This document shows positions 1,849-20,299 of a stretch of 64,000 nt of DNA, one piece after another. The notes beneath the pieces were generated by a model, which worked only from the letters and a program-made list of their open reading frames with translations, searched no databases and was not told the DNA's origin. This DNA comes from Escherichia phage phiWec187. The stretch's first letter is position 1; every line of letters starts with the position of its first letter. The position numbers were made by a program, and so were the translations under genes. The DNA lies in the sequence record LC739536.1; one strand, 5' to 3'.

Positions 1849-2094
1849 ATGAGAAAATTTTTAATAGGTATGTTTTGTACATATCCTGATAATAAAGTCA
1901 GTTCTACTAAAGTTTGGAATGCTATTGGTATGATTGTTATGTCCAGTATGTTTATTTATTTGGGAATTGATAAAGAAATTCCTGAATGGATGGGCTGGGC
2001 TTTTGTTTTTATGATCACACCATCCAGACTGATGAAGAATTTAATAGATTTACGTTGGGGCAGATCACCTGCCCCTGATAAGGAGGATAACTAA
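1849..2094 (+). CDS. small hydrophobic protein
   Basis: 81-aa ORF with a hydrophobic core (MIVMSSMFIYLGI, WMGWAFVFMI); stop overlaps the next start (TAATG). Confidence 0.35.
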   Translation: MRKFLIGMFCTYPDNKVSSTKVWNAIGMIVMSSMFIYLGIDKEIPEWMGWAFVFMITPSRLMKNLIDLRWGRSPAPDKEDN

Positions 2095-3581
2095 TGGCAG
2101 ATTATGGTTTAACAGATGCTGGTTTTGTCATTCCAACGTTTGATGATATTTTAAATAATTATATGACAGCATTGAAAAACACTTTCGGTGCAGATACAGC
2201 TACATCTGAAGATACTGTCTTTGGTCAACTGTTTCGTATTATTGCATATACAGATTACACCCTTTGGGAAGGTATGCAAGGTGTTTACAATACCCAAACC
2301 TTAGATGGTGCAGAAGGTATTTATCTTGATGAAATTTTCTCTAAAAGGGGTTTTTATCGTAAAGCTGCTTCTGCTGGTAGTGGTTATGCTTATGTTAAAT
2401 CTAACAATAAGGCAGCTTGGACTTATGAGCTAAGCACAGATGTTTATTTTAATGCCGATAACGATTTGACATATTATGTCAGTGCACCAACAATGTTGAA
2501 TGCTAAGATTGGAGCATATACCATTTCTAAAGCAAACGCAACAGCTTCTGGTGAAACTTCTATTACTTTCTACATTCAAAGTGCTATTGACGGTGGTCTT
2601 AACAGTAAAACACTAAGTCCTAGCAATACAAACTTTATTTTAGATCTCACGAATTTCATTAAAGCTAACGTATCAACAACAGATCGTGCTTTAGTATGGA
2701 ATGATGCTAGTAATGTTTACATGGGTTATAATCCAGAAGATAATGTTAACCCAATAGGTTTAGTAACACCAGTGAAATTTTACGCATCTATTGCAATAGG
2801 TACAAAATGGAGTGAAATTCCAGTTACGTGTTCAGACGTTGGTTATAATCCAGTAGGTACAGAAAGTATCACAGGTATTTCTTCAACGTTTACAGGCTTT
2901 TTAGATACAGGTAACTTCTATCCATTCTCTCCAGGTACAGATGTTGAAACAGATGCAGAATTCCGTTCTCGTTTCAATGATAATATGGATGAAGCTAATG
3001 CTGCTACTCGTGCTGCTATTGTTAAAGCTCTGCTACTGACAGATGGTGTGACAAAGGTTAAGATTTATGATAACCCTACATTACATGATCAGGAACATGC
3101 TCCAGCTATGACATTCCAGACTATTGTGTATGGTGGTACAGCAGAAGAAGTTGCACAGGTTATTTATAATACTAAACCTATTAACACCTTAACCTATGGT
3201 ACAACAGCAATTACTATCGTAACAGAAGATGGCGGTCAAGAAGTAATTCGTTTTTCTCCTGGTGACAATGCTGAATATTCACTTAAACTGATATATCAAA
3301 CTGGCAATGGTAGTGTGTTAAGTACAACAGAAAGAGAAAATATTGTTTCTGCTCTTTCAAACCTACAGGCTTATTTTGAGTTAGGGTCAACAGTAACTAA
3401 CGATCAGATAAAAGGTGTAATTTATTCTGCACTTGCGTTCGGACGCTTGACTTCTCTCCGTGTTTATGTTAAACTTAATACTGAGGATGACAGTAAATAT
3501 AATGAGGGAGATATCACTCCAGCGTACAATGTTGTACCATCCTTTGACCTTGATAATATTTCCTACGAGTACGGAGTCTAA
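2094..3581 (+). CDS. putative baseplate protein (gpJ/gp6-like position)
   Basis: 495-aa ORF directly upstream of the fibre genes, translationally coupled; assigned by position only. Confidence 0.4.
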   Translation: MADYGLTDAGFVIPTFDDILNNYMTALKNTFGADTATSEDTVFGQLFRIIAYTDYTLWEGMQGVYNTQTLDGAEGIYLDEIFSKRGFYRKAASAGSGYAYVKSNNKAAWTYELSTDVYFNADNDLTYYVSAPTMLNAKIGAYTISKANATASGETSITFYIQSAIDGGLNSKTLSPSNTNFILDLTNFIKANVSTTDRALVWNDASNVYMGYNPEDNVNPIGLVTPVKFYASIAIGTKWSEIPVTCSDVGYNPVGTESITGISSTFTGFLDTGNFYPFSPGTDVETDAEFRSRFNDNMDEANAATRAAIVKALLLTDGVTKVKIYDNPTLHDQEHAPAMTFQTIVYGGTAEEVAQVIYNTKPINTLTYGTTAITIVTEDGGQEVIRFSPGDNAEYSLKLIYQTGNGSVLSTTERENIVSALSNLQAYFELGSTVTNDQIKGVIYSALAFGRLTSLRVYVKLNTEDDSKYNEGDITPAYNVVPSFDLDNISYEYGV

Positions 3582-3583
3582 AA

Positions 3584-4213
3584 ATGGCAGTGAGTGTTGA
3601 CCATGTGACAACGTGGGATAGTATCAATGAAGATGTTAAAGACCTACTGATTGAAGATTTTAAATCTTCTCCGAACATTGTCAAACTACTCTATATCATT
3701 TCTAGCGAAAAACAAAAGATAGATCAGGCAATGATCTATCTTGCCAAACACCGCTTGATCTCTACTGCAACTGGTAAGTATTTAGATCTTATTGGTGAAG
3801 AGATGGGGATGGAAAGAAATGGTGCTACAGATGAAGAGTATCGTACAATATTAAAAATCAGGGCTTATCGTGTTGCGTCTTCTGGTACGCGAGATGATAT
3901 CATTGATATGTTCGCTCGTTTTACAGGAACAGAAAAAGAAACGATCAATACATACGTTGGATTAAATAAAACATTCGACGTATTCTTTTATAATTTGTGT
4001 CTACAATCCGATCAGGCAGTAGCACAGTTACTTAACGTTTTCCCGATCCTAAGTAGTTATCGCTTAGGTGCGAAAGCGGGTTCAGCCTTTGGTTTCACTT
4101 CCTATTATGCCACAACTCCACCTCATGGCATAGGTGGTTTAGGTTCTCTTTACACAGAGGCTGAAGGAGATGATACAGGGCGAATGACTATGCTGATAGC
4201 TCAAATAGAATAA
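3584..4213 (+). CDS. putative baseplate/tail protein
   Basis: 209-aa ORF 3 nt after the preceding stop; sits between baseplate-like and fibre genes. Confidence 0.4.
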   Translation: MAVSVDHVTTWDSINEDVKDLLIEDFKSSPNIVKLLYIISSEKQKIDQAMIYLAKHRLISTATGKYLDLIGEEMGMERNGATDEEYRTILKIRAYRVASSGTRDDIIDMFARFTGTEKETINTYVGLNKTFDVFFYNLCLQSDQAVAQLLNVFPILSSYRLGAKAGSAFGFTSYYATTPPHGIGGLGSLYTEAEGDDTGRMTMLIAQIE

Positions 4214-4226
4214 GGAGTTACCCTTA

Positions 4227-5207
4227 ATGGCAAAGCCACAATACTACCCTGACTGGGCGACACAAACAGTAACCCTCCCAGGAACGGGAAACACAAACAA
4301 GATTAGACCAAAAGAAACCATCCGTAATGTTGGTATGGACTTTGGTCAGATTATGACTTGTGAAGAAATGAACTGGATCTTAAACAATATTGGGTCTTGG
4401 ATTCGCTATATGCAAGATGAATTCTTCCCAACATTGCCTACTACATATCTTCCTATAGTCGGTACTAAAATTACAATGGCAGGTGATGCTACAGGTGAAG
4501 TTACATGGAATGGTAATGCTGCTGTAACATTATCTATTCAAGTAGTAGATAACAGTCATAATCACTTATCAGCTAACATTACAGACGCAACATCGAACCA
4601 AGTTGTAGGAAATGTCCTTGTTAAGCGTGATAATGGTGGTGCTATCTATGCAGGTGATATTTACACTTGTGGTACAGGTGCTACAGATCCTGCAACATTA
4701 TTTTTTAGAAACTATAATGGACAAACAGTAGGCAATATGTCTTCTGAACCAGGTGCAGGTGGTCAACTCTATATTTATAGAATAAATCCATCTACTGGAG
4801 GAACATCTTGTGGAGTCCGTTTGTATGATGCAGGTTATGTTTTAATAGACAATCCTCGTTCTAATTCTGGTCAAGATACTGGCAATGGTAATGCTCTTGT
4901 AAGATTAGATTATCTTAACTCAAGACTAAACTCATTGCAAAGTACACTGCAAAATAATATTAACAACGTTAATAGCAACTTGCAAGGCCAAATTAATAAC
5001 ATTAACAATAGAGTTTCTTCTGTTGTGTCTTCTATCCGTCTAGGTACACGTATTAAAGCTGGTGTATCTGAATCTCCTTTCTATGCTGGTCACGTGATCA
5101 CAGGTTGGGGTTTTGGTGATAAGAAAGAACTTCGTGGTGCTTGGTATTGGTCTGCTCCGCTACAATATTACATTAATGGTAGGTGGATAACAGTAACCAA
5201 CGTTTAG
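4227..5207 (+). CDS. tail fibre protein (short fibre)
   Basis: Gly/Thr/Asn-rich beta-type sequence with a C-terminal heptad-like segment (LNSRLNSLQSTLQNNINNVNSNLQGQINNINNRV); RBS AAGGAG upstream. Confidence 0.5.
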   Translation: MAKPQYYPDWATQTVTLPGTGNTNKIRPKETIRNVGMDFGQIMTCEEMNWILNNIGSWIRYMQDEFFPTLPTTYLPIVGTKITMAGDATGEVTWNGNAAVTLSIQVVDNSHNHLSANITDATSNQVVGNVLVKRDNGGAIYAGDIYTCGTGATDPATLFFRNYNGQTVGNMSSEPGAGGQLYIYRINPSTGGTSCGVRLYDAGYVLIDNPRSNSGQDTGNGNALVRLDYLNSRLNSLQSTLQNNINNVNSNLQGQINNINNRVSSVVSSIRLGTRIKAGVSESPFYAGHVITGWGFGDKKELRGAWYWSAPLQYYINGRWITVTNV

Positions 5208-5219
5208 TAAGGAGAACAC

Positions 5220-5771
5220 ATGAAAAAAGATGTTATTTACACTGGCTTTGAACTATATCAACCAGAATTGACAGAAGAAAATGTCATCTATCTTTCAATA
5301 GGTGCTGGTTTTCTTAAAGATAAAGATGGTAATGATTGGTACGAAATTCAGAAATATTTATCCAAAAATTACCCTGATGCCTATTTCTTAACTCTAGATC
5401 ACAACAATGTAGTTGTTGCAGCTACGAAAGATGTTTCTACATATTTTCCCGCTGGTCTTACTGTTCTTGTAACATACAATGTTCCAGATAAAATAGAAGA
5501 AGAAAGCAACCTAGGGTCGTGGAGATATGACAATGGTAAGTTTATTTCTCATAATGGGTTTGCAATAGAAGATGCCAACCTTAAAATGGAAAAAGAATTA
5601 ACTTGGGCCACAAATCAAATATCTGCAATTCAAGATTTAGAGGAATTACAAGGTTTATCTGAAGAACAAAAAGATTGGTTAGGAAAAGTTAAACTCTATC
5701 GTGCAACATTAATTCAAATTAACGTTGAAGATGCACCTAATATAACTTGGCCTACAAGACCTAAGAAATAG
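5220..5771 (+). CDS. tail fibre assembly chaperone (Tfa-like)
   Basis: C-terminal DWLGKVKLYRATLIQINVEDAPNITWPTRP matches the Tfa C-terminal signature (W..YR..L..V......WP..P); directly follows a fibre gene. Confidence 0.6.
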   Translation: MKKDVIYTGFELYQPELTEENVIYLSIGAGFLKDKDGNDWYEIQKYLSKNYPDAYFLTLDHNNVVVAATKDVSTYFPAGLTVLVTYNVPDKIEEESNLGSWRYDNGKFISHNGFAIEDANLKMEKELTWATNQISAIQDLEELQGLSEEQKDWLGKVKLYRATLIQINVEDAPNITWPTRPKK

Positions 5772-5780
5772 GGGCAATGT

Positions 5781-6122
5781 ATGGAGCTAACAGAAGTATG
5801 GGATATCGCTAAAGAGGCGATTATCCCTCTTATTGGCGTAATCTGGGTGGTCTTCAAACAGAAGATAGATGATATGGCAAGTGATTTGGATAAAATGGAA
5901 GACAAATACCGCGAACTAGAAAAGAAGTTGGTGTTTGTTGAATCCACTTATGCTACCAAAGCAGAACTTGCTCAAATGCTTAACCAGATCAACTCTACAT
6001 TAATGGCAAATAATACTGCCTTAGAACAGAAGATTGAAAAAATAATGGATTTAAAAAATGCTCCTGTTCAATTAATGCTAGAGGAGATTACAAAGCGCAC
6101 ACAAAGTAAGGACAAAAATTAA
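5781..6122 (+). CDS. hypothetical protein (N-terminal hydrophobic helix plus coiled coil)
   Basis: 113-aa ORF; IIPLIGVIWVVF hydrophobic stretch then charged helical region; stop overlaps next start. Confidence 0.4.
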   Translation: MELTEVWDIAKEAIIPLIGVIWVVFKQKIDDMASDLDKMEDKYRELEKKLVFVESTYATKAELAQMLNQINSTLMANNTALEQKIEKIMDLKNAPVQLMLEEITKRTQSKDKN

Positions 6123-8536
6123 TGGCGAATTTTCCAACATATCCTGCTACGACACTAGAACAAGGTGTTGATCTGGTTATATTCTCGTCTAACCAGATGC
6201 ATGATGTTATTAATGGGGATGCTACAGCAACTGTAGAAACCGAAACAGGTTTAATACCTACACTGCGTAAAGCACTTGTTGATAACTTCTTCTTTAAGAG
6301 TCCTGTTGCTTGGTCAGCAGGATCAACTGAAACTGTATTTAACCAGTTACGTTATTTTGAAAACGGTATCTTGAGTGGGTACTATTATGCCCCATCTGCC
6401 ACTACTGCGAACCCTGTACCTATGCAGGGCACACCTGTAGGGGACAGTAACTGGACTCTGTACGCTCTTAAAACTGAACAGTTAGCTTCAGATGTGTATC
6501 CTTGGTATTTTAAAGGTGCTACAGGATATGAAACAGAAATCAGTCCTCCTTATATCTTTGATAATGCTATTGTCACCATTAACGGTGTAATTCAGATTCA
6601 AGGTGAAGCATTTACTATCAAAGATAGTAAAATTATTCTGGCAGAACCATTAGGTTTAGATCCGTCTACTGGTCTACCTAACAAATTGTTTGCTTTTATT
6701 GGTAAAACAACAGCTTCTACTTCTTACGTAGAGAAAAACCTTTTGTCATCTACTACTGGTGCAGCAATGGTTGGTCTTCCATCTGGAGGCAACCTGTTAC
6801 AAGCTCAATACTTTGTAACGCCTGAGCAGTTTGGTGCAATTGGTGATGGAGTTACCGATGATACTCAAGCAATTTTAAAAACTATCACTTTCGCTAACAC
6901 GAATAACATTCAAGTACGTGCAGATAAGAATTATAGATTCACAAGCTCAATTGCTATGTCTGGTATTCGTTGGTATGGTGGTACATTCACTGGTAACGGT
7001 GGAACAATGATTTCTACTGTGTCCTGTTGGATGGAAAACGTTCGCTTTGAAAAATGTTATGTTAAGATGTTAGGTGGTGATTGCCGATTCTATCGTAATA
7101 TCTTCTCCAACGCAACATCTACAGCAGCATTCTTAATGCAAGCAATGACAAGTGAAGGTACGTTGGACTTCAGTTACAACGAAATGTATGGTTGTAAATA
7201 TGCGATCCTGCAACAAGGTACTGGAGAAGTAATGACCTACGGGCGTTACTCTAACAACTATATTCACGATATCAAAGGTGATGCTATTGAACTTAACGTA
7301 GTTCAAAAACACTACACTGAAGGTTTGATTATCGAGAATAACCACATTGCTAACGTAGATGCTTCTGGACAAGGTGCAAACTGGGGTATTGGTATTGGTG
7401 TAGCAGGTAGTGGCCCATATGGTGTTGATGTTCCTGATTCACAATATGTACGTAATTTCAGTATCGTTGGGAATAGGGTTTACAATTGCCGTCAATGTTT
7501 ACACGTTGAAATGGGTAAAAACTTCACAATACGTGATAATGAAGTTTATCCTAACACAGCAGTTTCAACAGGTACAGGTTTAACTACTTGTGGTGTTGCA
7601 TTATACGGATGCCAAGATTTTGAAGTTGATGGTTTAACTGGTTATCTGCTCAATGATCCGTCTGTTTCAACACGTATGGTCTTTATTGACTGGGGTGTTA
7701 ACAGTGGAAGATATGCGGGGCCACCAATTAACTTTACAATTAAGAATTTGGATATTCCAGAATCTTCAATTGAGATTGCAACATCTGGATCAGATGCCTG
7801 GGAAAACTCTACAATTGTTAGTAATATCAATTGTAATATTTTTAAATGGCGTGGGCTACCATCTAGCTCTACCTTTAATAATATTCGTTGCCGTAGTATT
7901 GACTTTATTGGTCAACACGGAAGCGGAGAAGGAAGTGGTGGCGGTTTCTATACTCGCAGCCAATTCACGTATATGAAGTGGGTAGGATGTACAGCACTTA
8001 GCGGAGATGAAACAACAGTTTCTTTTGCTAAAATCTACACTGATCGTTGCGATCAGGTTGGAAATAACTTTGGTGTTCCAACTGCTGTTGATGGTACAGG
8101 TCATCGTGGGCCAGTTTTAACTACTATTTCTGAACAATATTTTACAGCTTATGATGAATTCCCAGGTGGGCGTGAATTCCCTACTGGAACAGTTATTCAT
8201 TGTGCAAGCGGTAAAAAACATGTTGTTACAGTAGGTGGTGCTTTCTTTAGTGACAACGAGAAAATAAAAGCAACTGTTACAGGTCAAACCTATCTACAGT
8301 CTAATGCTTTAAACTGGGCTAGTAATGGCTACGCTAAAGCAGCAGGTACTAAGATTGTTATTCCAGGTGCAGGTGCAAATGGCGGCGATCTTGTGACAAC
8401 TATAGCACGTGCTACATATGTGACAAATAGTTTGTACACAATAGATATTGCAGATCCAATTGTAACACCTACAGCAGAGAATACACAAATTAAAGCTCTG
8501 AATCCTGTTACTTTTGTTACTGTCAATAATGCTTAA
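6122..8536 (+). CDS. tailspike with right-handed parallel beta-helix (putative polysaccharide depolymerase)
   Basis: 804 aa; repeated beta-helix-like turns (NNHIANVDASGQGANWGIGIGVAGSG, VGNRVYNCRQCLHVEMGKNFTIRDNEVY); terminator follows. Confidence 0.7.
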   Translation: MANFPTYPATTLEQGVDLVIFSSNQMHDVINGDATATVETETGLIPTLRKALVDNFFFKSPVAWSAGSTETVFNQLRYFENGILSGYYYAPSATTANPVPMQGTPVGDSNWTLYALKTEQLASDVYPWYFKGATGYETEISPPYIFDNAIVTINGVIQIQGEAFTIKDSKIILAEPLGLDPSTGLPNKLFAFIGKTTASTSYVEKNLLSSTTGAAMVGLPSGGNLLQAQYFVTPEQFGAIGDGVTDDTQAILKTITFANTNNIQVRADKNYRFTSSIAMSGIRWYGGTFTGNGGTMISTVSCWMENVRFEKCYVKMLGGDCRFYRNIFSNATSTAAFLMQAMTSEGTLDFSYNEMYGCKYAILQQGTGEVMTYGRYSNNYIHDIKGDAIELNVVQKHYTEGLIIENNHIANVDASGQGANWGIGIGVAGSGPYGVDVPDSQYVRNFSIVGNRVYNCRQCLHVEMGKNFTIRDNEVYPNTAVSTGTGLTTCGVALYGCQDFEVDGLTGYLLNDPSVSTRMVFIDWGVNSGRYAGPPINFTIKNLDIPESSIEIATSGSDAWENSTIVSNINCNIFKWRGLPSSSTFNNIRCRSIDFIGQHGSGEGSGGGFYTRSQFTYMKWVGCTALSGDETTVSFAKIYTDRCDQVGNNFGVPTAVDGTGHRGPVLTTISEQYFTAYDEFPGGREFPTGTVIHCASGKKHVVTVGGAFFSDNEKIKATVTGQTYLQSNALNWASNGYAKAAGTKIVIPGAGANGGDLVTTIARATYVTNSLYTIDIADPIVTPTAENTQIKALNPVTFVTVNNA

Positions 8537-8540
8537 TTAA

Positions 8541-8562
8541 AAAGGGGCGAAAGCCCCTTTAT
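8541..8562 (+). terminator. rho-independent terminator after the tailspike gene
   Basis: aggggc-gaaa-gcccct hairpin followed by TT/A-rich tract. Confidence 0.6.
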
Positions 8563-8577
8563 AAAAGGAGTAGTAAA

Positions 8578-10539
8578 GTGATTTTAACACGTCCAAATAG
8601 TGCCATTGCAGACATGGTAGAGTCTCGCTATAGAAAGCGTAGAAGTTTTGCAAGTGGTTTTACCTTAAGAGATGCTCGTGAAGCATTGCTCTTTGAAACT
8701 GACGGTAACTACTATCAGTGGAAAGGTTCTCTACCTAAAGTTGTACCTGCTAACTCTACTCCTACATCTACTGGAGGGATTTCAGATACAGCTTGGAAAA
8801 ATGTGGGTAATGCAGATGACATTGCTCAAATAGAATCAGAATTAGATGCTATTGAAGCTGAAATTGAAGATCTTAGAGAATCCATTCCAGAGGCTGGTAA
8901 ATCAGCTTACCAGATTGCCGTAGACAATGGTTTCCAAGGTACTGAGACAGAGTGGTTGGCTTCTTTAAAAGGTGATCCAGGTGCTCCATTAAAGCTACTA
9001 GGGACGCTATCTAATACCAACCAATTACCTACAACTGGAAACAATGCAGGGGATGCATGGATTGTAGGCGAGAATATGTATGCTTGGGATGGTACTGCTT
9101 GGAGAAAAGTAAACTCACAGGGGCCAGAAGGTAAATCTGCTTATGAAGTATGGCTTGCAGCAGGAAACGAAGGTACAGAACTAGATTATCTTGCCGCAAT
9201 TAAAGGTGATAAAGGGGAGCCTGGCCCAGAGGGGCCACAAGGTGTGCCAGGTAATAATGCTAATGGTTTTGATTACCAAGGCGCAGCTAATTCCGTTTCA
9301 GATCTTCCTTCTGCATCTCCTGGAAACACATCTCAAGCATGGAGTATTGGTACATATCTATACGTGTCAAACGGTGTAGAATGGATCAATATGGGCGCTA
9401 TAGTGGGGCCAAAAGGAGATAAAGGCGACAAAGGAGATAAGGGTAACACTGGTGATTCAGCTTATCAAGTCTGGTTAAATGCTGGTAACGTTGGTACTAT
9501 TGACGAATATATTGCCTCTCTGAAAGGAGAAAAAGGTGATAAGGGAGACAAGGGTGATCAAGGTGAACAGGGTATACAAGGCTTGACGGGGCCAACTGGT
9601 GCAGGGTTGACCATTATTGACATTCTGACTAGCACTTCTGAACTACCACAAACTGGAGAAGATGGCGATGGTTATCTGATCAATAATGAACTTTGGGTCT
9701 GGTTGCAAGGAGCCACAGAGTGGACAAATGTTGGTCGTTTAGCTGGTACTCCAATCACTGCAAAAGGACACGTTGCGTCTGCAAGTGCACTTCCTCCTAC
9801 AGCCAATTACGGTGATGCTTATCTGACGGAAGATACAGGTCATCTTTACATTTACACCTATGATGAACAAACTCAAACTGCTGAATATGTAGATATGGGT
9901 AGTTTGAAAGGTGATAAGGGTGAAAAAGGTGACGCTGGTACTAACGGTACAGACGGTGCAACTTGGATTGTTAAAACAACAGATCCAATCTCTAGTGATG
10001 GTAAACAAGGTGATTATGCCTTTAATATCTCCACTGGCGAGGTGTTCTTAAAAACATCTGCAACTATCTGGACTTCTCAAGGTACACTACCTAGTATCAC
10101 AGATGCACCTAGTGATGGTAAGACTTATGCTCGTAAAGATGGAGCATGGGAAGAACTCACTAATTCTGTAGATGGTCAAGATATAGTTCCAACAAAAGTA
10201 ACAACTAATTTTATAGAGGTTACAGCATATACTAACAATTCTGTTACAGGGGACTGGACACCTCCAGGAACACATAACATGAATGTGTTGAATCTTACTG
10301 GTAACTCTACTATAAAAGCATGGCCTGGTGTCGAAGATAGCACAAAACCTAAACCATTCTCTGCAATAGTTTATCTTATCCAAGATGCCACTGGAGGTCG
10401 TACTGTTACTTTAGATCCATCTTACAAAGTAATTGGTTCCAGTGATATTAATACAGATCCTAACGGAGTAACAATACTACAACTAACATATTGTGGTGTT
10501 GGCGATTACGTGGATGCTATTGTTGCTAAACGCACATAA
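8578..10539 (+). CDS. tail fibre with collagen-like G-X-Y repeats and phage fibre repeats
   Basis: GDKGEPGPEGPQGVPG, GPKGDKGDKGDKGNTGDS, GEKGDKGDKGDQGEQGIQGLTGPTG; three copies of the SAYQVWL..G..GT..EY.ASLKG unit; GTG start after AAAAGGAG. Confidence 0.75.
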   Translation: MILTRPNSAIADMVESRYRKRRSFASGFTLRDAREALLFETDGNYYQWKGSLPKVVPANSTPTSTGGISDTAWKNVGNADDIAQIESELDAIEAEIEDLRESIPEAGKSAYQIAVDNGFQGTETEWLASLKGDPGAPLKLLGTLSNTNQLPTTGNNAGDAWIVGENMYAWDGTAWRKVNSQGPEGKSAYEVWLAAGNEGTELDYLAAIKGDKGEPGPEGPQGVPGNNANGFDYQGAANSVSDLPSASPGNTSQAWSIGTYLYVSNGVEWINMGAIVGPKGDKGDKGDKGNTGDSAYQVWLNAGNVGTIDEYIASLKGEKGDKGDKGDQGEQGIQGLTGPTGAGLTIIDILTSTSELPQTGEDGDGYLINNELWVWLQGATEWTNVGRLAGTPITAKGHVASASALPPTANYGDAYLTEDTGHLYIYTYDEQTQTAEYVDMGSLKGDKGEKGDAGTNGTDGATWIVKTTDPISSDGKQGDYAFNISTGEVFLKTSATIWTSQGTLPSITDAPSDGKTYARKDGAWEELTNSVDGQDIVPTKVTTNFIEVTAYTNNSVTGDWTPPGTHNMNVLNLTGNSTIKAWPGVEDSTKPKPFSAIVYLIQDATGGRTVTLDPSYKVIGSSDINTDPNGVTILQLTYCGVGDYVDAIVAKRT

Positions 10540-10542
10540 TCA

Positions 10543-10567
10543 AAGCCCCTTCTGGGGCTTATTATTT
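10543..10567 (+). terminator. rho-independent terminator after the collagen-like fibre gene
   Basis: aagcccc-ttct-ggggctt followed by attattt. Confidence 0.6.
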
Positions 10568-10578
10568 AAGGAGATTAA

Positions 10579-13398
10579 ATGTATCCTATTCCTTTATTTA
10601 TGTCAACAACATCAGCTTCAGTAGTAACAGCTACATCTATAACTACTTCCTCTATTGGTATTGCAATAGTTGGTGGTAAAAAACAACTGACATACACAGT
10701 TACACCGGAAGATGGTGCATTATTTGATATAGCTTTTTCATCTTCAGATAATACCAAAATGGTTATAGATAATAGTGGTATGATGGAGTTTGTTGCCGAA
10801 GGTGGTTTTGATGCAATAATGACAGCTAAAAATAATTTAGGTGCTGTCTTAACTGATCAATCTGGTGGTTATGCTTCAGAATTAAGTGTGTACACTGAAA
10901 GTCTATCGGCTATGGATGTAGGCACTACTCAACAGTTGGTTGCTACAATCAGTCCAGAAGGTGCTAAAGACCTTCCAGATATGGTAATTACATACACCAC
11001 AACAGATCCAGAAGTAGCTACTGTAAGCCCTACAGGGTTAATAACTGCTCTTAAAGATGGCGGTTGCCGTATAGGTTGTACTGCAACGTATCAAGGAACA
11101 GTTGTGGCCTCTGATAGGTCTTATTTAGGTGTTAATGCTATTCCTGTTATTTCTAATGTAACAGCCGTGGCAAACAGTTATGGAGACGTTCGTGTTGCTT
11201 GGGATGTAACTGATCCGCTAGACGGTGATACTTATACTGTAGAAGTATTAGATTTAAGTAATAATAGTGTTCAGTGGACTACAACAACCACGAATACTTA
11301 CGCTTACTTTGATATCTCTGACTCTATTCCTCTTTATGGGTTTGCTCCAACATACCTTAAAATTAGCGTTAAGAGCACCAAAGCAGCAGCCGTTATCTTT
11401 AATAACTCAATAGCTACAGATGATTCGTTCATTAAAGAAGTTATTGTCTTTGCTGGACAAGATAACGTAAATGCACACTTTACAGAACTATCTGGTGCAA
11501 ATAAAGCAGCAATGAGTAGCACAACAGCCCGTAATGCATATGCCACGCAACGTGGTTTAGCAAATGCTGAAGTTCTTCCGTTAAATACAGCTTCTGGATC
11601 ATCAGCAGCAGATAAATATGCAGATGATAAAGCCGGAACAGGAACACCAGACAACTACTGGTATGATCTGGATAACACAGCAGATGGGCCATGCTTAACT
11701 AACTTTATCACTAAAGTCACACCTTATGCAAGTAAGGTTAAAGCCATTATTTGGGGACAAGGTGAAAATGATGCTGTATCAGCATCTTCGACTGTTGCAG
11801 GTAGGTACAGTAACACTACACGTTACCATGATGCTACGATAGCCATCTTTGATAAGATGCGTACAATAGTTCCTGCTTCTCAAGCAAAAATTGTTTGGCA
11901 GATCCTAGGACGTTCTTATTTATATGGTGTAGAAGTTAATGGTGTGGATTGGCAGAAGTACAGAAATGTACAAAGAACCATCTCTACAGCACGTGATGAT
12001 GTTATCATTGGTTCTTGGGTAGATGGTGCTGAACGTTACAGTGGTTATGTTTATGAAGAAGGTATTGATGGTCGTATCCATTATATTTCTTCTGTATACC
12101 AAACAGCAGCTACAAAACTTGCTAAATCAGCAGCAGACGGTACAGACTTAACATCAACGTCACCTGTTTGGGTTGATATGGCTGTTCCAACTGGAGCAAC
12201 AGCTACTTCCCAATCTAATCAAGATACAATTTTAGCATGGGATGCTCAAGGCTATAGTAAACACTACTTCCGTAATATTAACGTCTTAACCGCATCTGTA
12301 TTAACTGAACAAACGCTTAATACGAACAGTTATACGTTTACCTATGCAGATCAAGTAGCACAATATGGCTTTGCAGCAGGAACTACTATATTTGATGTTG
12401 CATATTATGACGAAGCAAATGATGTGTTATCTCCTTTAGTACGTTTTAATGTTAACGTTACAGCAGGAACCGTAGAAGATAAACCTGTAGTGATGGATTA
12501 TGATTTAACACAAGAAACTCTTCCATCAGATGTTAAGGTTAATGGTGGGAACTCTTTTGCTCGTACTTCTGGAGATACACTTGTAGCCACTAACACCTTG
12601 GTTGCTCCGTTGGAGTATATTGGTACTACCCCTGTAGGTAGACGTGTAACAGCTAACACAGCTACACAAATTTTTGTCAACAACGCCTTAACAAGTGCAA
12701 GCCCGTGGGTAAAGACCAACTTAACTGTTGCAGCTTCATCTGATAACTCTCCGGTTGGAACTACTGCTAATGTATTCAAATTAACTCCGACTACAACCTC
12801 TGGTAGTCATATCTTAACTGCAACATATACTAACGCGTACAACATATCTGCCGGACGTAACTGGTCTGCCTCTGTTTTCTTGAAAGCGAACGGGATTACT
12901 AAGGCCAAACTAAGATTAAAAGCAGGAACTGAAGTTAATGAGGGTACTTTTGATTTAGCAGCAGGTACATTCACAGGAAGTGAAGCTAATATTATATCTA
13001 TGGGCAACGGTTGGTATCGTGCTATTCTGCATAAAACAGGGATAGCCAAACAGTCCTCCATAAGTTTTGAAATAATTGCCTTGGATGCAACTGGTGCGGA
13101 GATTTTCGCTGGAGATGGTACTAGTAACCTTGCAGTTTGGTTGCCACAGCTTGAAGGTGCTTCTACAGGAGAAACATCAAAAGCTGGATCGCCTTATGTC
13201 TGCACATATCCTGGAAATTTAGGAGGAGTATCCTTCACTATACCAAGGAACGGACATACTGGTGTGGATGTTTACTATTCCAACGGAGACGTTGTTCGTG
13301 ACGTATTCTCTGGTACGGCATCTACTTGGACAATAAACTACTCCAGCTTGTACGATTGGGGATCAGTCTTTATTACAGGTTTGAAATATTACGACTAA
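10579..13398 (+). CDS. large tail fibre/receptor-binding protein with Ig-like (Big_2-type) domain and putative esterase-like domain
   Basis: 939 aa; Big_2-like segment (TQQLVATISPEGAKDLPDMVITYTTTDPEVATVSPTGLITALKDGGCRIGCTATY); IIWGQGENDA resembles SGNH/sialate-O-acetylesterase-type motifs (weak); terminator follows. Confidence 0.55.
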   Translation: MYPIPLFMSTTSASVVTATSITTSSIGIAIVGGKKQLTYTVTPEDGALFDIAFSSSDNTKMVIDNSGMMEFVAEGGFDAIMTAKNNLGAVLTDQSGGYASELSVYTESLSAMDVGTTQQLVATISPEGAKDLPDMVITYTTTDPEVATVSPTGLITALKDGGCRIGCTATYQGTVVASDRSYLGVNAIPVISNVTAVANSYGDVRVAWDVTDPLDGDTYTVEVLDLSNNSVQWTTTTTNTYAYFDISDSIPLYGFAPTYLKISVKSTKAAAVIFNNSIATDDSFIKEVIVFAGQDNVNAHFTELSGANKAAMSSTTARNAYATQRGLANAEVLPLNTASGSSAADKYADDKAGTGTPDNYWYDLDNTADGPCLTNFITKVTPYASKVKAIIWGQGENDAVSASSTVAGRYSNTTRYHDATIAIFDKMRTIVPASQAKIVWQILGRSYLYGVEVNGVDWQKYRNVQRTISTARDDVIIGSWVDGAERYSGYVYEEGIDGRIHYISSVYQTAATKLAKSAADGTDLTSTSPVWVDMAVPTGATATSQSNQDTILAWDAQGYSKHYFRNINVLTASVLTEQTLNTNSYTFTYADQVAQYGFAAGTTIFDVAYYDEANDVLSPLVRFNVNVTAGTVEDKPVVMDYDLTQETLPSDVKVNGGNSFARTSGDTLVATNTLVAPLEYIGTTPVGRRVTANTATQIFVNNALTSASPWVKTNLTVAASSDNSPVGTTANVFKLTPTTTSGSHILTATYTNAYNISAGRNWSASVFLKANGITKAKLRLKAGTEVNEGTFDLAAGTFTGSEANIISMGNGWYRAILHKTGIAKQSSISFEIIALDATGAEIFAGDGTSNLAVWLPQLEGASTGETSKAGSPYVCTYPGNLGGVSFTIPRNGHTGVDVYYSNGDVVRDVFSGTASTWTINYSSLYDWGSVFITGLKYYD

Positions 13399-13403
13399 TA
13401 AAA

Positions 13404-13430
13404 AAGGAGCCATTAGGCTCCTTTTCTTTT
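13404..13430. terminator. bidirectional terminator between convergent genes
   Basis: aaggagcc-atta-ggctcctt followed by ttctttt; lies between a plus-strand gene end (13398) and a minus-strand gene end (13434). Confidence 0.6.
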
Positions 13431-13433
13431 ATC

Positions 13434-13865
13434 TTAATCAGTGAAAATTACGCTCACATCTTCTTTAGAGAAGAGTTTATGATCTTCACCTTTTGTCTCA
13501 AGAGTTTCATACAGGTTAAGAAGTTCTGAAACATCTTTCTCTACCAGTTTCTTCAATGTTGCAATTTTCTGTTTGCGATTCTTAATACGTTCAGCTACAA
13601 CCTTACGTTGGTATCCGGCAGTACGATAACCTGAGAAAGTTACACCAGTAAGACTTGCAGTTACAGGATCGTAGTGACGTTCAATCTGAAATTTATTAAA
13701 AGGTACAGCGTCATCACGAATAATCTTACCGCCATTACTTACTTGACGAAGACCAGTAACTTGCTCAAGTCGTGCCATAGAAATCTTTGGAGACAGACCA
13801 GAATCCAGGTTCATACCGTTGTTAATCAGTGCTTTCAGGGTGATTTTGCTGTTCAGTGTACTCAT
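13434..13865 (-). CDS. hypothetical protein
   Basis: 143-aa ORF co-oriented with and just downstream of the methyltransferase; listed start overlaps the MTase 3' end, true start may be the internal Met at 13814. Confidence 0.4.
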   Translation of the reverse strand: MSTLNSKITLKALINNGMNLDSGLSPKISMARLEQVTGLRQVSNGGKIIRDDAVPFNKFQIERHYDPVTASLTGVTFSGYRTAGYQRKVVAERIKNRKQKIATLKKLVEKDVSELLNLYETLETKGEDHKLFSKEDVSVIFTD

Positions 13866-16019: not shown

Positions 16020-16613
16020 TTAAATTTTAAATTCTTCACTGTTAAATGAATCCAGTGTACGTACTTCTGGTTCTTTGGGAATGAAAACGTCTTTTACAAA
16101 GCGGAACATAGGGAAACGTTCTGCCATTTTACGGACGTGTGCTTCTTTACCTGTGTATCGGTGATTAATAGTACAAATATTAGTTTTCAGTGCAAATTCA
16201 AAATCTGGATGATATACATAATTTTGACCATCCCAGTAACACAAGCAAATAGCTACATCAAAGTTCCATACGATTTCACTGCGTACACCTTCTTCCATAA
16301 TCATAAAGTTAAACTTAAGATCTTTATAGTATGCTTCAAATACCCATTTCAAATGCGGTAGTTCGGCATAAGTGTGTTCTGTTTGCTTAGTAAGTTGTTT
16401 AACATTACGTGCACCAACACCCAACATCAAAAATTTCTCTACTAATACGATTGTATTGTGGTTAGGCATACGCAAGTAAATATCAATATCTTGCGCAGGT
16501 TTCTCTAATCGCCAATCACGTACAGCGCCGCCAGCTACAATTGCAAACGGATCTACCAGTTGGCACATACGTAATACTTCTAAAGCTCGTACTTTTTGAT
16601 CTTCAATATTCAT
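16020..16613 (-). CDS. minimal nucleotidyltransferase (CCA-adding/poly(A) polymerase head-domain-like)
   Basis: AGGAVRDWRL followed by DIDIY, matching the GGxVRD...DxD signature of the Pol-beta-type tRNA nucleotidyltransferase head domain; only 197 aa. Confidence 0.5.
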   Translation of the reverse strand: MNIEDQKVRALEVLRMCQLVDPFAIVAGGAVRDWRLEKPAQDIDIYLRMPNHNTIVLVEKFLMLGVGARNVKQLTKQTEHTYAELPHLKWVFEAYYKDLKFNFMIMEEGVRSEIVWNFDVAICLCYWDGQNYVYHPDFEFALKTNICTINHRYTGKEAHVRKMAERFPMFRFVKDVFIPKEPEVRTLDSFNSEEFKI

Positions 16614-16750
16614 ATTTTCTCCTATCTCTTATGGTCTTTGCGTTATTCTAGATGTTCAAACATCTAATTATGAAATGGTTTAAAAGTGCGGAACAACCTT
16701 GGCAATTACAGATTGTTCCACATAAAAACTCCTTTAAAATCAAAGATTTG

Positions 16751-19700
16751 TCAATGACAACTAGCCCATGAGTTACCAACATCGTAACCAGCAGTGAGAG
16801 GTACATTAAGATTGTAATACTCACCAGCTTTATTAACAGCGATAGATGCTAATTCTCCAGCACGACTGTAGGCTGTAAACCAACCACCTTTCGGAGATTC
16901 ATGTACGTTAGCCCAAATCTTGCCAGTACGTTTCTCTTCCTCTTCTTTCCAGGTATTAACTTTATCCAAACATTCTTTATCAATTTTCTTTTGTTCTTCT
17001 GGATCATCAACTTGAGTCCAACCTAAAGATTCTTTAGAGAACCATTTAAAATGCACCAGATCACGAGTTACTTCAAGCTGTGCTTCATCGTGATATGCAA
17101 TCATTTGTTGAACGAATGACTTATTTTTCCAGTCATCAACAAAAAAGTCAACAGCTAATCCTTCTTCTTCGATAAGATCGTCGTAGATAACCATTGCTCT
17201 TTTTGCACAAATAACACCACCACTCTGGAACAGAGAGTTAAGTATTGCGTGTGCAGATCGTGTAGGTACTTTTCTACCATCAATACCGAGAATGTATTTC
17301 TTACCTGTTTTAACCCAAAAATCATGCAGACGTTCTTTAAGAAGCGCAAGAGGTTTTGCAGCTTCCCAGAAAGCATCGTATACAAGCTGTCCTGTATACA
17401 TATCACTACCTATAGTTTTTGCTACTTTTGCAGCTTGAGCGCCGTACGTGCAGTTACCTGTCAACGTGATAAAACCATTCTGACGCATAACAAAAGATTC
17501 ATTCTTGGTTGAGATACAGAATACATCTGTTACTCGTGAAAAAGCTCTTGTCAACCTCTGTCCTGAAATAGTTTGTCCGTTATTGATTGCCAACGTTAAC
17601 ATGCCATCTTTTTGAACAGAACCATACGCAATATTACCTGTCATATTGATAGCCAAAGAAACAGCGTCGCTAATCTTACCTTTCTTTTGACGGATAACAA
17701 GACTGCCGTTTGGACGCTTATGACCATCTGCCATCCAGAATGCCTCTAAGAATGCTTCCAACACAGCTTGACCTTGATTAGCAATTAATGTAGACCAGTC
17801 CACTTCGTGCTTATTTTGACCCACTTCAACGCCACATTTAGTCAAAAATTCCCTAAACTGACTCTTATTAGGACGTAATGAATGCATCGTTCCAGATACA
17901 TACTCGTCAAATGTGAAGATATCTCCCACAGCCTCACGTGCTTCTTCTAAGAATTTTTTCTCATCTTGATCTACCGTGACTGTAATACCCATTACTTTAT
18001 TTCTGGCTTTGCCAGACCACTTATAGTAGCCATCCGAAAGAAGCCAGCCTAAGAAACGACCTTCTTCCACTGTTAGAGTAGACACCACACCAGATCGCCC
18101 TGCTGCAATTATGTTTGACTCCGAGTTTAAATCCTCTGTAGATCTACGCTCCACTTGCATATACTTAACATTGTTACCATCTGATCGCATAGTTTTTCTC
18201 TGTGCGTTAATCCACATATGATCGTTAGTAACTTCTACTTTGAACCACTTGTTACCGAGAGAGACAACTTCTGCATCGTTATAGTCCCACAGCTTAAGAA
18301 TAGGGGTATATTCGTAAAGAGCGGTGTGAGTATTATAAGATAAAACTTCATCCCCTACAAAAAGATCTTTACGTTTCTTCCAACCCGTTCTTGTTAACAC
18401 TTCCGTATTATCTACAGGTACACAACCGTATTTAACGCTCTTAGCAGGACCACGTTCAAACTTACGTCCAATAATATCAGTAATATGTTTTGCCATCATA
18501 GTATGCACATCGTTTGGTTTTTCTAACAGAAGTGCATTACAGTAAGCATGATCAGGATTATCATATCTCCACGTATAATGCGACTCAATCTTCGCCTCTA
18601 ATGAATCAAAGTCATAACCAATCTGGAAGTATTTAGGAACCTCTACACCAAATAAGTTACGCATTTCATATCCGTACAGAGATGTTACACGTGGGATATT
18701 TGCTACTAACCTATGTTTCATACGAGATGTAGCTGCATCACACGTTGCAGCAGGAGTTGGTATACGACCATCAGCCCTTACTGCTGCCAGATAACCTTTA
18801 TCGTAATCCTCTTCTTCTTCCCAATCAGCACCACCCCCTAGAATAGAGTTCCTACGGTGTTTATACGTAAGATACTGCACAACCTGCGTAGCATAAGGAA
18901 ACTTTTCACCTAGTGCTTCCAAGTTAGGACAAATATCTTTCTCTTGCCCTTTTGTAAAGGAAGGGTTAGTAAGCACTTTAACACCACGACCTTTAGCTTT
19001 AGCAATACGATCTCTTAGTTTCCATTCCAAAGTTTCTGGTGTGCACTCCAGATGATCACATCTGTCCTGGCAGAAATTAGATGCTAATGTTTGATCAACA
19101 TAGTCACGAATGGCTTTCTCCATTTGTGCTTCATCTTTCTTAATCTTAGTGCCAGATTTAAGAGTGATATCTTTATCTTTATATTCAGATGGACTCCAAC
19201 CTAAACCAACTAACCAATTTTTAATATGTGTTGTGTCGTCTAAAGTAGCAGGTACTGTAGGATCACAAATAGGTTCTTCTGCTGGAATAGGTAGTTTAAA
19301 CTCTTTACCTAATGCAAATAACCACCAACCATCTTCTTTTTGTACAAGTTCACCAGAATGTTTCTCTGCAAACTTTATCATGTTACTTGAAGGTTCACCA
19401 TTCTTTTTAAACTGTAGTTTAGGTGGAATGAATGATTTCAAATAACCTTTAGTAGCAGGTTTAGGAGGTAGCACAGGTTCTGCCTCTAAACGACATGCTT
19501 CCATTCGAGCATCCAGATCACGAATATTATCTTCTGCTTGTTTCATGTTGAAAGCAAAGCCACGGTGCTCTTGACGTGTAATAATATCAGCTACACGTTG
19601 TTCTAAGTTAAATGGTTCAGACCACTTATTATAATCACCCCACTCTTCCATCAAATAACGGAACACTGCGGTGTTAGCTTTGTTATCGTAAATACAGTAA

Positions 19701-20299
19701 TACAGCATATCTGCTGCAAATGTTCTAAATCTTTCAGTTTCAGGGATGTTTTTTCTGAAATCAATTTTAACATCCCCTCCAGCTTTCTTAGATAACTCTG
19801 CCAGACTATGACCACCGAAGCGATCAGGGTTTAGTGTCTTACTTAAGATCATAGTATCACAAATTTCAATGTTACTATTACCCCAAGTATTGTACTTAAT
19901 ACTGTAGTTGAGTTTAAAAAATAATTTAATTGCCAGTAAGTCGAAGTTAATGATGTTGTGTCCAACTACTTTGGTAATTTTATAGTTTGAATTACCTTTA
20001 AATTTACCTGTTCCGTTTACAAAATCAGGAAAATCTTTAAGAGGGAAATGGGTATATTCTAAATGCTCATATTCCTCCAGTCGGTATTCATACTTTCCGT
20101 CAGTCTCAACATACGGACGACCATCGAAAAGATATTTATCACCATCATGGAAAGCAATAATCTCTCCAGTATCATGACTTTCGCACACAATACAGTGCAT
20201 TGCAAAACTATCTTTTAAACGATATGGACTTGCCAAGTAATCTACACTTTCGTCATTAAGCAAGTTGTTACTTTCAATGTCGAAAGTAAAAGCTCCCAT
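16751..20299 (-). CDS. family A DNA polymerase with N-terminal 3'-5' exonuclease, interrupted by an intein
   Basis: Motif B region RGPAKSVKYG...CTYGAQAAK split by a 324-aa insert; motif C AYHDEAQLE; N-terminal exonuclease-like FDIESN. Confidence 0.85.
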   Translation of the reverse strand: MGAFTFDIESNNLLNDESVDYLASPYRLKDSFAMHCIVCESHDTGEIIAFHDGDKYLFDGRPYVETDGKYEYRLEEYEHLEYTHFPLKDFPDFVNGTGKFKGNSNYKITKVVGHNIINFDLLAIKLFFKLNYSIKYNTWGNSNIEICDTMILSKTLNPDRFGGHSLAELSKKAGGDVKIDFRKNIPETERFRTFAADMLYYCIYDNKANTAVFRYLMEEWGDYNKWSEPFNLEQRVADIITRQEHRGFAFNMKQAEDNIRDLDARMEACRLEAEPVLPPKPATKGYLKSFIPPKLQFKKNGEPSSNMIKFAEKHSGELVQKEDGWWLFALGKEFKLPIPAEEPICDPTVPATLDDTTHIKNWLVGLGWSPSEYKDKDITLKSGTKIKKDEAQMEKAIRDYVDQTLASNFCQDRCDHLECTPETLEWKLRDRIAKAKGRGVKVLTNPSFTKGQEKDICPNLEALGEKFPYATQVVQYLTYKHRRNSILGGGADWEEEEDYDKGYLAAVRADGRIPTPAATCDAATSRMKHRLVANIPRVTSLYGYEMRNLFGVEVPKYFQIGYDFDSLEAKIESHYTWRYDNPDHAYCNALLLEKPNDVHTMMAKHITDIIGRKFERGPAKSVKYGCVPVDNTEVLTRTGWKKRKDLFVGDEVLSYNTHTALYEYTPILKLWDYNDAEVVSLGNKWFKVEVTNDHMWINAQRKTMRSDGNNVKYMQVERRSTEDLNSESNIIAAGRSGVVSTLTVEEGRFLGWLLSDGYYKWSGKARNKVMGITVTVDQDEKKFLEEAREAVGDIFTFDEYVSGTMHSLRPNKSQFREFLTKCGVEVGQNKHEVDWSTLIANQGQAVLEAFLEAFWMADGHKRPNGSLVIRQKKGKISDAVSLAINMTGNIAYGSVQKDGMLTLAINNGQTISGQRLTRAFSRVTDVFCISTKNESFVMRQNGFITLTGNCTYGAQAAKVAKTIGSDMYTGQLVYDAFWEAAKPLALLKERLHDFWVKTGKKYILGIDGRKVPTRSAHAILNSLFQSGGVICAKRAMVIYDDLIEEEGLAVDFFVDDWKNKSFVQQMIAYHDEAQLEVTRDLVHFKWFSKESLGWTQVDDPEEQKKIDKECLDKVNTWKEEEEKRTGKIWANVHESPKGGWFTAYSRAGELASIAVNKAGEYYNLNVPLTAGYDVGNSWASCH
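17453..18424 (-). mobile_element. intein with LAGLIDADG-type homing endonuclease inside DNA polymerase motif B
   Basis: Begins CVPVDNTEVL (intein block A), ends ...LTGN with +1 Cys; internal GWLLSDGYY and LEAFWMADGH resemble the two LAGLIDADG helices; removal restores K-x3-YG-x2-YG. Confidence 0.75.

Follow-up and report, generated by a model that had tools for sequence, protein, structure and literature searches.

Do adjacent genes for fibre- and spike-like proteins give a phage as many parallel receptor specificities, or do their products play unequal parts in a single adsorption machine? The question is raised by a 9.2 kb run of genes at positions 4227-13398 of a 64,000-nucleotide (nt) stretch of Escherichia phage phiWec187 (sequence record LC739536.1, one strand, 5' to 3'); this whole stretch is called the window below. 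An earlier note on this DNA described four distinct receptor-binding proteins, encoded back to back and each followed by a terminator, and took them to point to a branched or multi-specificity adsorption apparatus. We consider it highly probable, as one joint proposition, that this run of genes forms the distal half of the late operon for baseplate and tail fibres in a phi92-like myophage of the genus Justusliebigvirus, in which a conserved core is accompanied by accessory binders. The idea of multivalent adsorption is right for this group of phages and has already been published; the locus itself is ordinary, not new.

A phi92-type tail-fibre locus

In a nucleotide comparison, the locus matched more than 50 phage genomes at 95-99% nt identity, and at least 80% of the region was covered in 52 records. 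The relatives matched include the Escherichia phages inny, vB-Eco-KMB37, PHB05, alia, PaulScherrer and BME3; inny, vB-Eco-KMB37, PHB05, PaulScherrer and others reach 97-99% identity at 100% coverage, and the same open reading frame (ORF) coordinates are annotated as coding sequences in many phage genomes. The genus of the matched phages is Justusliebigvirus (Stephanstirmvirinae), with phi92 as its type member. Protein comparison with the phi92 record gave a one-to-one gene order, the region being the counterpart of phi92 genes 147-153 (lengths in amino acids, aa):

4227-5207, + strand, short tail fibre (326 aa; phi92 gp147, 99.4% identical)
5220-5771, + strand, Tfa chaperone (183 aa; phi92 gp148, 100% identical)
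5781-6122, + strand, 113-aa protein (phi92 gp149, 99.1% identical)
6122-8536, + strand, colanidase tailspike (804 aa; phi92 gp150, 99.6% identical)
8578-10539, + strand, collagen-like fibre (653 aa, GTG start; phi92 gp151, 99.5% identical)
10579-13398, + strand, 939-aa multidomain protein (phi92 gp152 and gp153)

With the two genes just upstream included, the homologues of gp145, gp146, gp147, gp148, gp149, gp150 and gp151 stand in the same order in phi92 and are 99-100% identical at the protein level; the two phages also share the intergenic layout and the convergent methyltransferase-side genes at which the operon ends. Both synteny and identity are thus those of a phi92-like locus. The differences are that phi92 has a gp143 endosialidase gene, which is absent here, and that its last gene is broken and annotated as gp152 and gp153, whereas here it is intact. 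All six ORFs, the intact 939-aa gene included, are alike in inny, vB-Eco-KMB37, PHB05, PaulScherrer (Bas60) and BME3, which share the whole 9.2 kb at 97-99%. Unlike phiWec187, PaulScherrer and KMB37 carry additional tailspike genes in the gp143 slot, and apart from the PaulScherrer chaperone discussed below, other differences from close relatives are minor. Among the relatives listed, DNA identity does not fall below 94.8% until the 3' part of the 939-aa gene is reached, which is unlike the usual picture for receptor binders that set host range. Given this conservation of gp147, gp150, gp151 and the DNA across hosts, these proteins are not behaving as host-range switches. The arrangement of four proteins back to back agrees with the coordinates, but the count had skipped the 113-aa ORF at 5781-6122 and left out a gp142-like fibre at 2-1837.

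The short fibre, its chaperone and the 113-aa protein

The first two genes are a fibre and its chaperone, as had been proposed. The short fibre matches phrog_4465 (tail fibre, E 4e-109), and the chaperone matches both Caudo_TAP (PF02413; E 3e-11, 43.9 bits against a cutoff of 22.1) and phrog_136 (E 4e-44). The fibre gene lies directly 5' of the Caudo_TAP-family gene, with a gap of 12 nt, as in a pair of the Mu GpS/GpU type; homology of the short fibre and chaperone to Mu GpS/GpU, together with dependence on the lipopolysaccharide (LPS) core, has been reported for this group (PMC8594841). Residues 2-72 of the short fibre resemble the N-terminus of the phiTE short tail fibre (9cuy_c, E 2e-11), which is modelled on the wedge protein in the phiTE baseplate map, and this likeness supports a direct attachment of the short fibre to the baseplate, by analogy with phiTE. 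In the 2026 electron cryomicroscopy (cryo-EM) study of phi92, fibre III was identified as gp147, a downward-pointing fibre whose structure changes greatly during contraction and whose binding is proposed to be irreversible (PMC13450770). The short-fibre role is thus shown by cryo-EM for phi92 gp147 and would carry over by analogy to its 99.4% identical homologue. Conserved and acting as the trigger of contraction, the short fibre does not represent an alternative specificity.

The chaperone (5220-5771) is 81% identical to that of PaulScherrer (6994-7542 of that record, L001), though the short fibres of the two phages are 98% identical; a chaperone less conserved than its presumed client is surprising for such a pair.

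The 113-aa protein is not receptor-binding. It matches phrog_15210 ('lipoprotein', E 2e-70) and, weakly, an Rz-like spanin (E 5e-4); its most hydrophobic 19-residue segment is residues 6-24, it has a long coiled coil, and the three relatives compared (PaulScherrer, KMB37 and phi92) conserve it at 99-100%.

A colanidase tailspike

The proposed beta-helix tailspike was confirmed at the level of a crystal structure. Residues 180-804 are ~99% identical to phi92 gp150 (PDB 6E0V chain A, 1433 bits), with four differing positions only across the printed alignment, and the identification as a colanidase beta-helix tailspike of the gp150 type agrees with the match to phrog_6117 (colanic acid degradation, E 7e-270). 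A TSP_Ig-like domain occupies residues 704-792. As quoted in the phi92 cryo-EM report (PMC13450770), gp150 cleaves colanic acid by hydrolysis of its beta-1,4 Glc-Fuc bond, and on the strength of near-identity the tailspike described here is predicted to be a colanic-acid-degrading enzyme as well. Residues 12-126 (6155-6499) resemble residues 15-130 of the phiTE long tail fibre (E 9e-18), a segment that is built in the phiTE baseplate map; this suggests that the tailspike may be anchored directly to the baseplate through its N-terminal domain. We also observed that residues 358-553 (7193-7780), in the catalytic region, resemble WcaM, a protein of the host colanic-acid cluster (TIGR04004, E 5e-29), at a score far under the equivalog cutoff.

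A collagen-like fibre

The product of 8578-10539 is a collagen-like fibre, as had been claimed from the letters. It matches Pfam Collagen (PF01391; E 8e-8, 32.4 bits against a cutoff of 27.2) and phrog_15437 (E 0), and contains 27 G-X-Y triplets in four runs of 6, 6, 9 and 6 (residues 210-227, 277-294, 317-343 and 445-462). Three SAY..WL..G..GT motifs are present, and a foldon-like motif at residues 504-529, DAPSDGKTYARKDGAWEEL, resembles Fibritin_C at E 1e-3, just under the cutoff; the C-terminal domain comprises ~120 aa. The foldon-like motif argues for a trimer, and the combination of G-X-Y runs with a trimerisation element is that of a collagen-like phage fibre. Tail_spike_N (residues 11-77, E 3e-21) lies near the extreme N-terminus here, whereas in the spikes of Sf11 and CBA120 it sits after an anchoring segment.

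The 939-aa protein

The last gene encodes the most composite protein of the locus, with the following parts in order:

10579-10602, + strand, conserved N-terminal peptide MYPIPLF
10681-11139, + strand, Big_2 immunoglobulin (Ig)-like region (~residues 35-187, E 4e-11)
between the Big_2 and SGNH-like parts, + strand, beta-sandwich domain
11431-12153, + strand, SGNH-like domain (~residues 285-525, found by Foldseek)
11461-11463, + strand, Asp295 at the nucleophile position (GQDN motif)
between the SGNH-like domain and the C-terminal module, + strand, second beta-sandwich domain
12493-13389, + strand, C-terminal module resembling a carbohydrate-binding module (CBM) (residues 639-937; AlphaFold2 model, NF048003)

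The description of this protein as Big_2/esterase-like stood for the Ig-like region and for the fold of the central domain and failed for the active site. A full-length AlphaFold2 model, built from 12 homologues, had a mean predicted local distance difference test score (pLDDT) of 57, with residues 190-600 mostly at 70-90 and some dips. Its best Foldseek matches were N4 gp65 (9lc0 and 9yf5; E ~1e-24, the top one 3e-24), followed by GDSL/SGNH esterases and PatB; the SGNH fold was recognised with a Foldseek probability of 1.0 and target-normalised TM-scores of 0.5-0.67 to GDSL esterases and PatB. A weak Foldseek match was the 'diluted triad' deacetylase (PDB 9h4u), for which the literature offered nothing of relevance. 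Sequence searches (tblastn, BLASTP) likewise matched residues 192-632 to N4 gp65 at E 1e-13. Yet the block-I motif reads FAGQDN, with Asp295 where relatives have Ser, so that the nucleophile serine of a GDS or GQSN motif is missing. Asp occupies this position in all Justusliebigvirus copies (GQDN) and in Avunavirus-type copies (GGDN), whereas N4 gp65 (GESQ) and metagenomic gp65-like proteins (GQSN, GQSH) keep Ser. The Pfam SASA profile (PF03629) stayed below its threshold (16.2 bits against 24.8, E 0.008) and was matched over profile positions 105-164 only. The protein is therefore esterase-like in fold, but its canonical active site is not intact, and the SGNH-like domain, judged from the residues at this site, probably binds rather than deacetylates. 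Rather than a classical trimeric fibre, it is a protein resembling gp65, the sheath/receptor-binding protein of N4. The pairing of NCTSP_N and TIM-barrel_NCTSP in one chain, as in N4 gp65, was not found, neither domain being present in the 939-aa protein.

Clear variation within the region is confined to the C-terminal module, among phages that are otherwise nearly identical: Eryne, outra, arall, muut and PD06 lack it, and a further subgroup has a version of ~86% identity. The C-terminal 320 aa of the protein drew no match from Pfam, even under relaxed thresholds; NCBIfam NF048003 (GTA_spike_fiber) matched residues 694-863 (E 6e-20, 72.5 bits against a curated cutoff of 36). The counterpart of this gene transfer agent (GTA) head-spike-fibre domain in RcGTA binds capsule (PMC10218006). 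The module also resembles the C-terminal appendage, which has no assigned function, of the Sf11 gp17 distal tail protein (E 6e-20). The earlier note had proposed structure prediction for each C-terminal domain; carried out for this one, a separate AlphaFold2 model (mean pLDDT 72) showed a CBM-like jelly roll, closest in the structure search to chains of the Pa193/E217 baseplate/tail-fibre complexes and then to many CBMs.

The N-terminal peptide is likely the virion anchor of the protein. A consensus M[YF]P[IF]P..F recurs in a set of proteins (P0032, P0035-P0050, P0116 and P0118) with entirely different domains behind it, namely Big_2 plus an SGNH-like domain, an RCC1 propeller, or Big_2 plus a CBM; Phapecoctavirus and Avunavirus proteins with other cargo, such as RCC1-type propellers, share it. 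This pattern in the sequences suggests that the motif may be a shared docking peptide for exchangeable cargo.

In phi92, the counterpart of the 939-aa gene (16321-17983 of that record, L003) has lost 218 nt, corresponding to window positions 11169-11386, changes frame a second time near residue 335 and lacks the C-terminal module; the block-I region lies between annotated gp152 and gp153. The deletion and the further frame change account for the annotation as two genes. The disruption could reflect decay during laboratory passage or a sequencing artefact.

Gene spacing and hairpins

The claim that each unit is followed by a terminator did not hold for the first. The gaps of 12 nt after the short fibre gene and 9 nt after the chaperone gene contain no structure, and the tailspike ATG shares bases with the stop codon of the 113-aa ORF; ORFs one to four are translationally packed. 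Hairpins follow the last three genes only:

8537-8564, + strand, 3' of the tailspike gene, GC-rich with a GAAA loop (-14.5 kcal/mol, z -3.1)
10543-10560, + strand, 3' of the collagen-like fibre gene, 7-bp GC-rich stem (-13.3 kcal/mol, z -1.9)
13402-13425, strand unspecified, 3' of the 939-aa gene, 10-bp stem followed by CTTTTATCTT (-15.4 kcal/mol, z -3.8)

The first of these has a weak U-tract and was missed by the terminator scan because its tail holds fewer than five T; its role may be that of an attenuator or a stabiliser and not of a full terminator. The second was found by the scan, with an interrupted T tail. A proper U-tract belongs only to the third, which folds better than all of its shuffled versions (0 of 200 fold as well) and has T-tracts on both sides; it lies between convergent genes, the minus-strand ORF opposite ending at 13434. 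This hairpin is the real end of the fibre operon. Across the region, then, terminators after every gene were not found, with none after 5207 or 5771 and poor U-tracts at 8537-8564 and 10543-10560. The hairpins were also considered as borders of separate transcription units. This was rejected, since promoter-like hits were no commoner than in shuffled sequence (56 against 51.6 ± 8.4) and separate promoters are therefore unsupported. Most likely, the hairpins after the last three genes tune transcript level or stability rather than mark independent units.

Upstream genes and the comparison with N4

Upstream of the locus, the window holds further parts of the same apparatus:

2-1837, + strand, gp142-like lateral fibre, C-terminal 611 aa (97.7% identical to phi92 gp142; truncated by the window start)
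2094-3581, + strand, gp145 homologue, baseplate wedge (99.8% identical to phi92; Baseplate_J match in the gene pair 2094-4213)
3584-4213, + strand, gp146 homologue, baseplate wedge (99.5% identical to phi92)

The wedge role of gp145 and gp146 and the fibre attachment sites come from the phi92 cryo-EM study (PMC13450770). A counterpart of phi92 gene 141 would lie upstream of the window. The ORF at 2-1837 had been a candidate for the gp143 (endosialidase) slot; tblastn identified it instead as the gp142 counterpart, truncated at the edge of the window. Nothing occupies the variable gp143 slot: 11 nt separate the stop of the gp142-like gene (1837) from the gp144-like start (1849), and the same junction is found in muut, arall, Eryne, inny and EmilieFrey.

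The gp142-like protein carries Pfam NCTSP_N and TIM-barrel_NCTSP (E 6e-82), and its BLASTP matches in N4 were gp64 (E 1e-32) and the gp65 N-terminus (E 1e-10). In the N4 sheath study, gp65 is modelled as a heterodimer with gp64 around the tail. The two N4 proteins are thus mirrored here in two genes 8.7 kb apart, the gp142-like protein being like gp64 and the gp65 N-terminus, and the central part of the 939-aa protein (residues 192-632) like gp65 and joined to Big_2 and CBM-like modules. N4 and the phi92-like phages both need the wecB/nfrB (NGR) glycan pathway on K-12. The settings differ, N4 having a podovirus sheath and phiWec187 a myovirus baseplate context, and so does block I, with Ser (GESQ) in N4 gp65 and Asp here; a homologue of the plug-binding domains D9-D10 of N4 gp65 was not demonstrated. 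Some metagenomic proteins (P0036, P0037, P0041 and P0044) have TIM-barrel and SGNH-like parts in a single chain.

Further downstream in the window, a minus-strand ORF at 16751-20299 (1182 aa) occupies the position of the DNA polymerase gene; its PaulScherrer counterpart is annotated as an intein-containing polymerase precursor.

Discussion

Phages related to phi92 have been described as carrying several co-expressed fibres and spikes, a 'nanosized Swiss army knife' (Maffei 2021, PMC8594841; Eryne announcement, PMC11984140), and the multivalent adsorption apparatus of phi92 goes back to Schwarzer et al. 2012, as cited in PMC8594841 and PMC11984140. Most of the tail-fibre locus is highly conserved in this group, and on K-12 the phages behave as effectively monovalent (PMC8594841). 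The 2026 cryo-EM study of phi92 found three sets of fibres per wedge, with fibre II, which it left unassigned, seated on the base of fibre I, so that the assembly is branched, and inferred gp143 as the tip of fibre I (PMC13450770). A tandem of genes for enzymatic and binding proteins is also known from the branched multi-tailspike complexes of the Ackermannviridae (TSP1-4 of CBA120) and from G7C gp63.1/gp66; CBA120 TSP1, TSP3, TSP4 and related spikes have the Tail_spike_N domain (PF18668) in common with the collagen-like fibre. In contrast to those systems, the proteins described here are mostly conserved and are not serotype-specific cassettes, and branching (XD) domains like those of T4 gp10 were not detected in them.

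Against this background, the operon may work as follows. The short fibre, folded by Tfa and hung from the wedge protein, would bind irreversibly to a conserved receptor and trigger sheath contraction; by analogy with genetics in relatives, that receptor is inferred to be LPS core glucose. The tailspike would cut the colanic acid exopolysaccharide and so let the phage reach the surface, presumably from an attachment on the baseplate. The collagen-like fibre would be a trimer held by its collagen triplets and foldon-like motif. The 939-aa protein would serve as an accessory, gp65-like glycan-binding appendage, in which a putative N-terminal peptide anchor is followed by Ig-like spacers, a pseudo-SGNH binder and a swappable C-terminal CBM-like domain that may bind polysaccharide. 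Joined by the gp141- and gp142-like fibres encoded upstream, these four products would make up the multivalent, partly branched apparatus described for phi92.

Several points weigh against this reading. Within this gene set, virion placement exists for the short fibre only, with none direct for gp150, gp151 or the 939-aa protein, and the fibre II density, whether of 2026 or of 2012, was fitted by the AlphaFold model of neither gp150 nor gp151 (PMC13450770). phi92 propagates with a broken counterpart of the 939-aa protein, which is therefore dispensable on at least one host, and the model of that protein is of low confidence outside its central domain. The loss of esterase activity rests on one residue, and unconventional catalysis by Asp could conceivably occur. 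Finally, a head, neck or tail location of gp151 or of the 939-aa protein keeps some weight from Ig-like and head-spike likeness: the Big_2 region shares 45-48% identity with Ig-like stretches of proteins annotated as siphophage major tail proteins, and gp151 has been reported to resemble the Pa223 head spike protein (PMC13450770).

How far the four proteins act in parallel is where other readings enter. It is rather unlikely that all four are displayed together as independent receptor specificities, each bounded by a terminator, in a branched multi-host apparatus. Co-expression of fibres and a broad host range are indeed familiar traits of the group, fibre II does branch from fibre I in phi92, several fibre proteins have been detected in rV5 virions by proteomics, and all four proteins carry domains typical of host-binding proteins. 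However, of the three fibre densities per wedge only gp147 of this set has been assigned to one; the gp147, gp150 and gp151 homologues are at least 99% identical to those of phi92, in DNA that is near-identical in phages from different hosts; and infection of K-12 appears effectively monovalent, with dependence on the wecB/nfrB glycan. The absence of terminators within the series of four genes from short fibre to tailspike, the broken phi92 counterpart of the last gene, and the architecture of its product, modular and gp65-like rather than that of a fibre, speak in the same direction. The earlier idea of a branched or multi-specificity apparatus thus applies to the phage group, where it is published; its stricter form, with four parallel specificities, is too specific.

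Two narrower proposals concern the last genes, and we regard both as unlikely. The collagen-like fibre, the 939-aa protein or both might decorate the head, neck or tail in the manner of Hoc, fibritin or the Ig domain of gpV, giving weak, non-specific adherence to glycans or mucus, or sensing the environment. The foldon-like Fibritin_C motif, the reported similarity of gp151 to a head spike, the 'GTA head spike fibre' family of the C-terminal domain, the siphophage likeness of the Big_2 region and the modular architecture shared with N4 gp65, whose modelled heterodimer with gp64 surrounds the tail, would all suit such a role, as would the failure of both gp150 and gp151 to fit fibre II. Yet both genes lie in the baseplate/fibre operon right after the tailspike, Tail_spike_N is known elsewhere from the tailspikes of CBA120, G7C-type phages and Sf11, the C-terminal fold is nearest to baseplate/tail-fibre chains of Pa193/E217, and the phi92 report mentions no whiskers, collar or head fibres in the reconstructions (PMC13450770). 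The 939-aa protein might instead be an active carbohydrate O-acetyl-esterase (a 'tail carbohydrate esterase') that deacetylates a surface glycan as the G7C gp63.1 tailspike does. Its SGNH/GDSL-like fold has a Foldseek probability of 1.0, the weak SASA match covers the block-III region, a WGQGEND motif and a His (RIHY) are conserved, and the protein is annotated as an esterase in KMB37 and ALITA. This is countered by the Asp at the nucleophile position in every Justusliebigvirus copy (GQDN) and its GGDN equivalent in the Avunavirus type, while N4 gp65 and its metagenomic relatives keep Ser (GESQ, GQSN, GQSH); by the change of the His to Gln in two of three closely related homologues of 645-647 aa; and by a SASA score of 16 bits, under the 24.8-bit cutoff.

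The phi92-type operon with a conserved core and accessory binders remains our preferred reading. One tentative idea, which we hold to be improbable as it stands, is that the 939-aa and gp142-like proteins together represent an N4 gp64-gp65 heterodimer that has been dismantled and redistributed on a myovirus baseplate, with the SGNH-like domain turned by the change from Ser to Asp into a non-catalytic, glycan-binding pseudo-esterase. If true, it would be this pair, and not the tailspike or the collagen-like fibre, that explains the dependence on NGR, NfrB and WecB common to the phi92-like phages and N4, and the pair could be what is seen as the unassigned fibre II in phi92. The empty gp143 slot bears on the published inference of gp143 as the tip of fibre I. 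Together with this slot, the intact 939-aa gene, its gp65-like architecture without a nucleophile and its N-terminal anchor peptide provide clues for fibre assignment, and a correct gene-to-fibre map would help to engineer therapeutic phages of broad host range.

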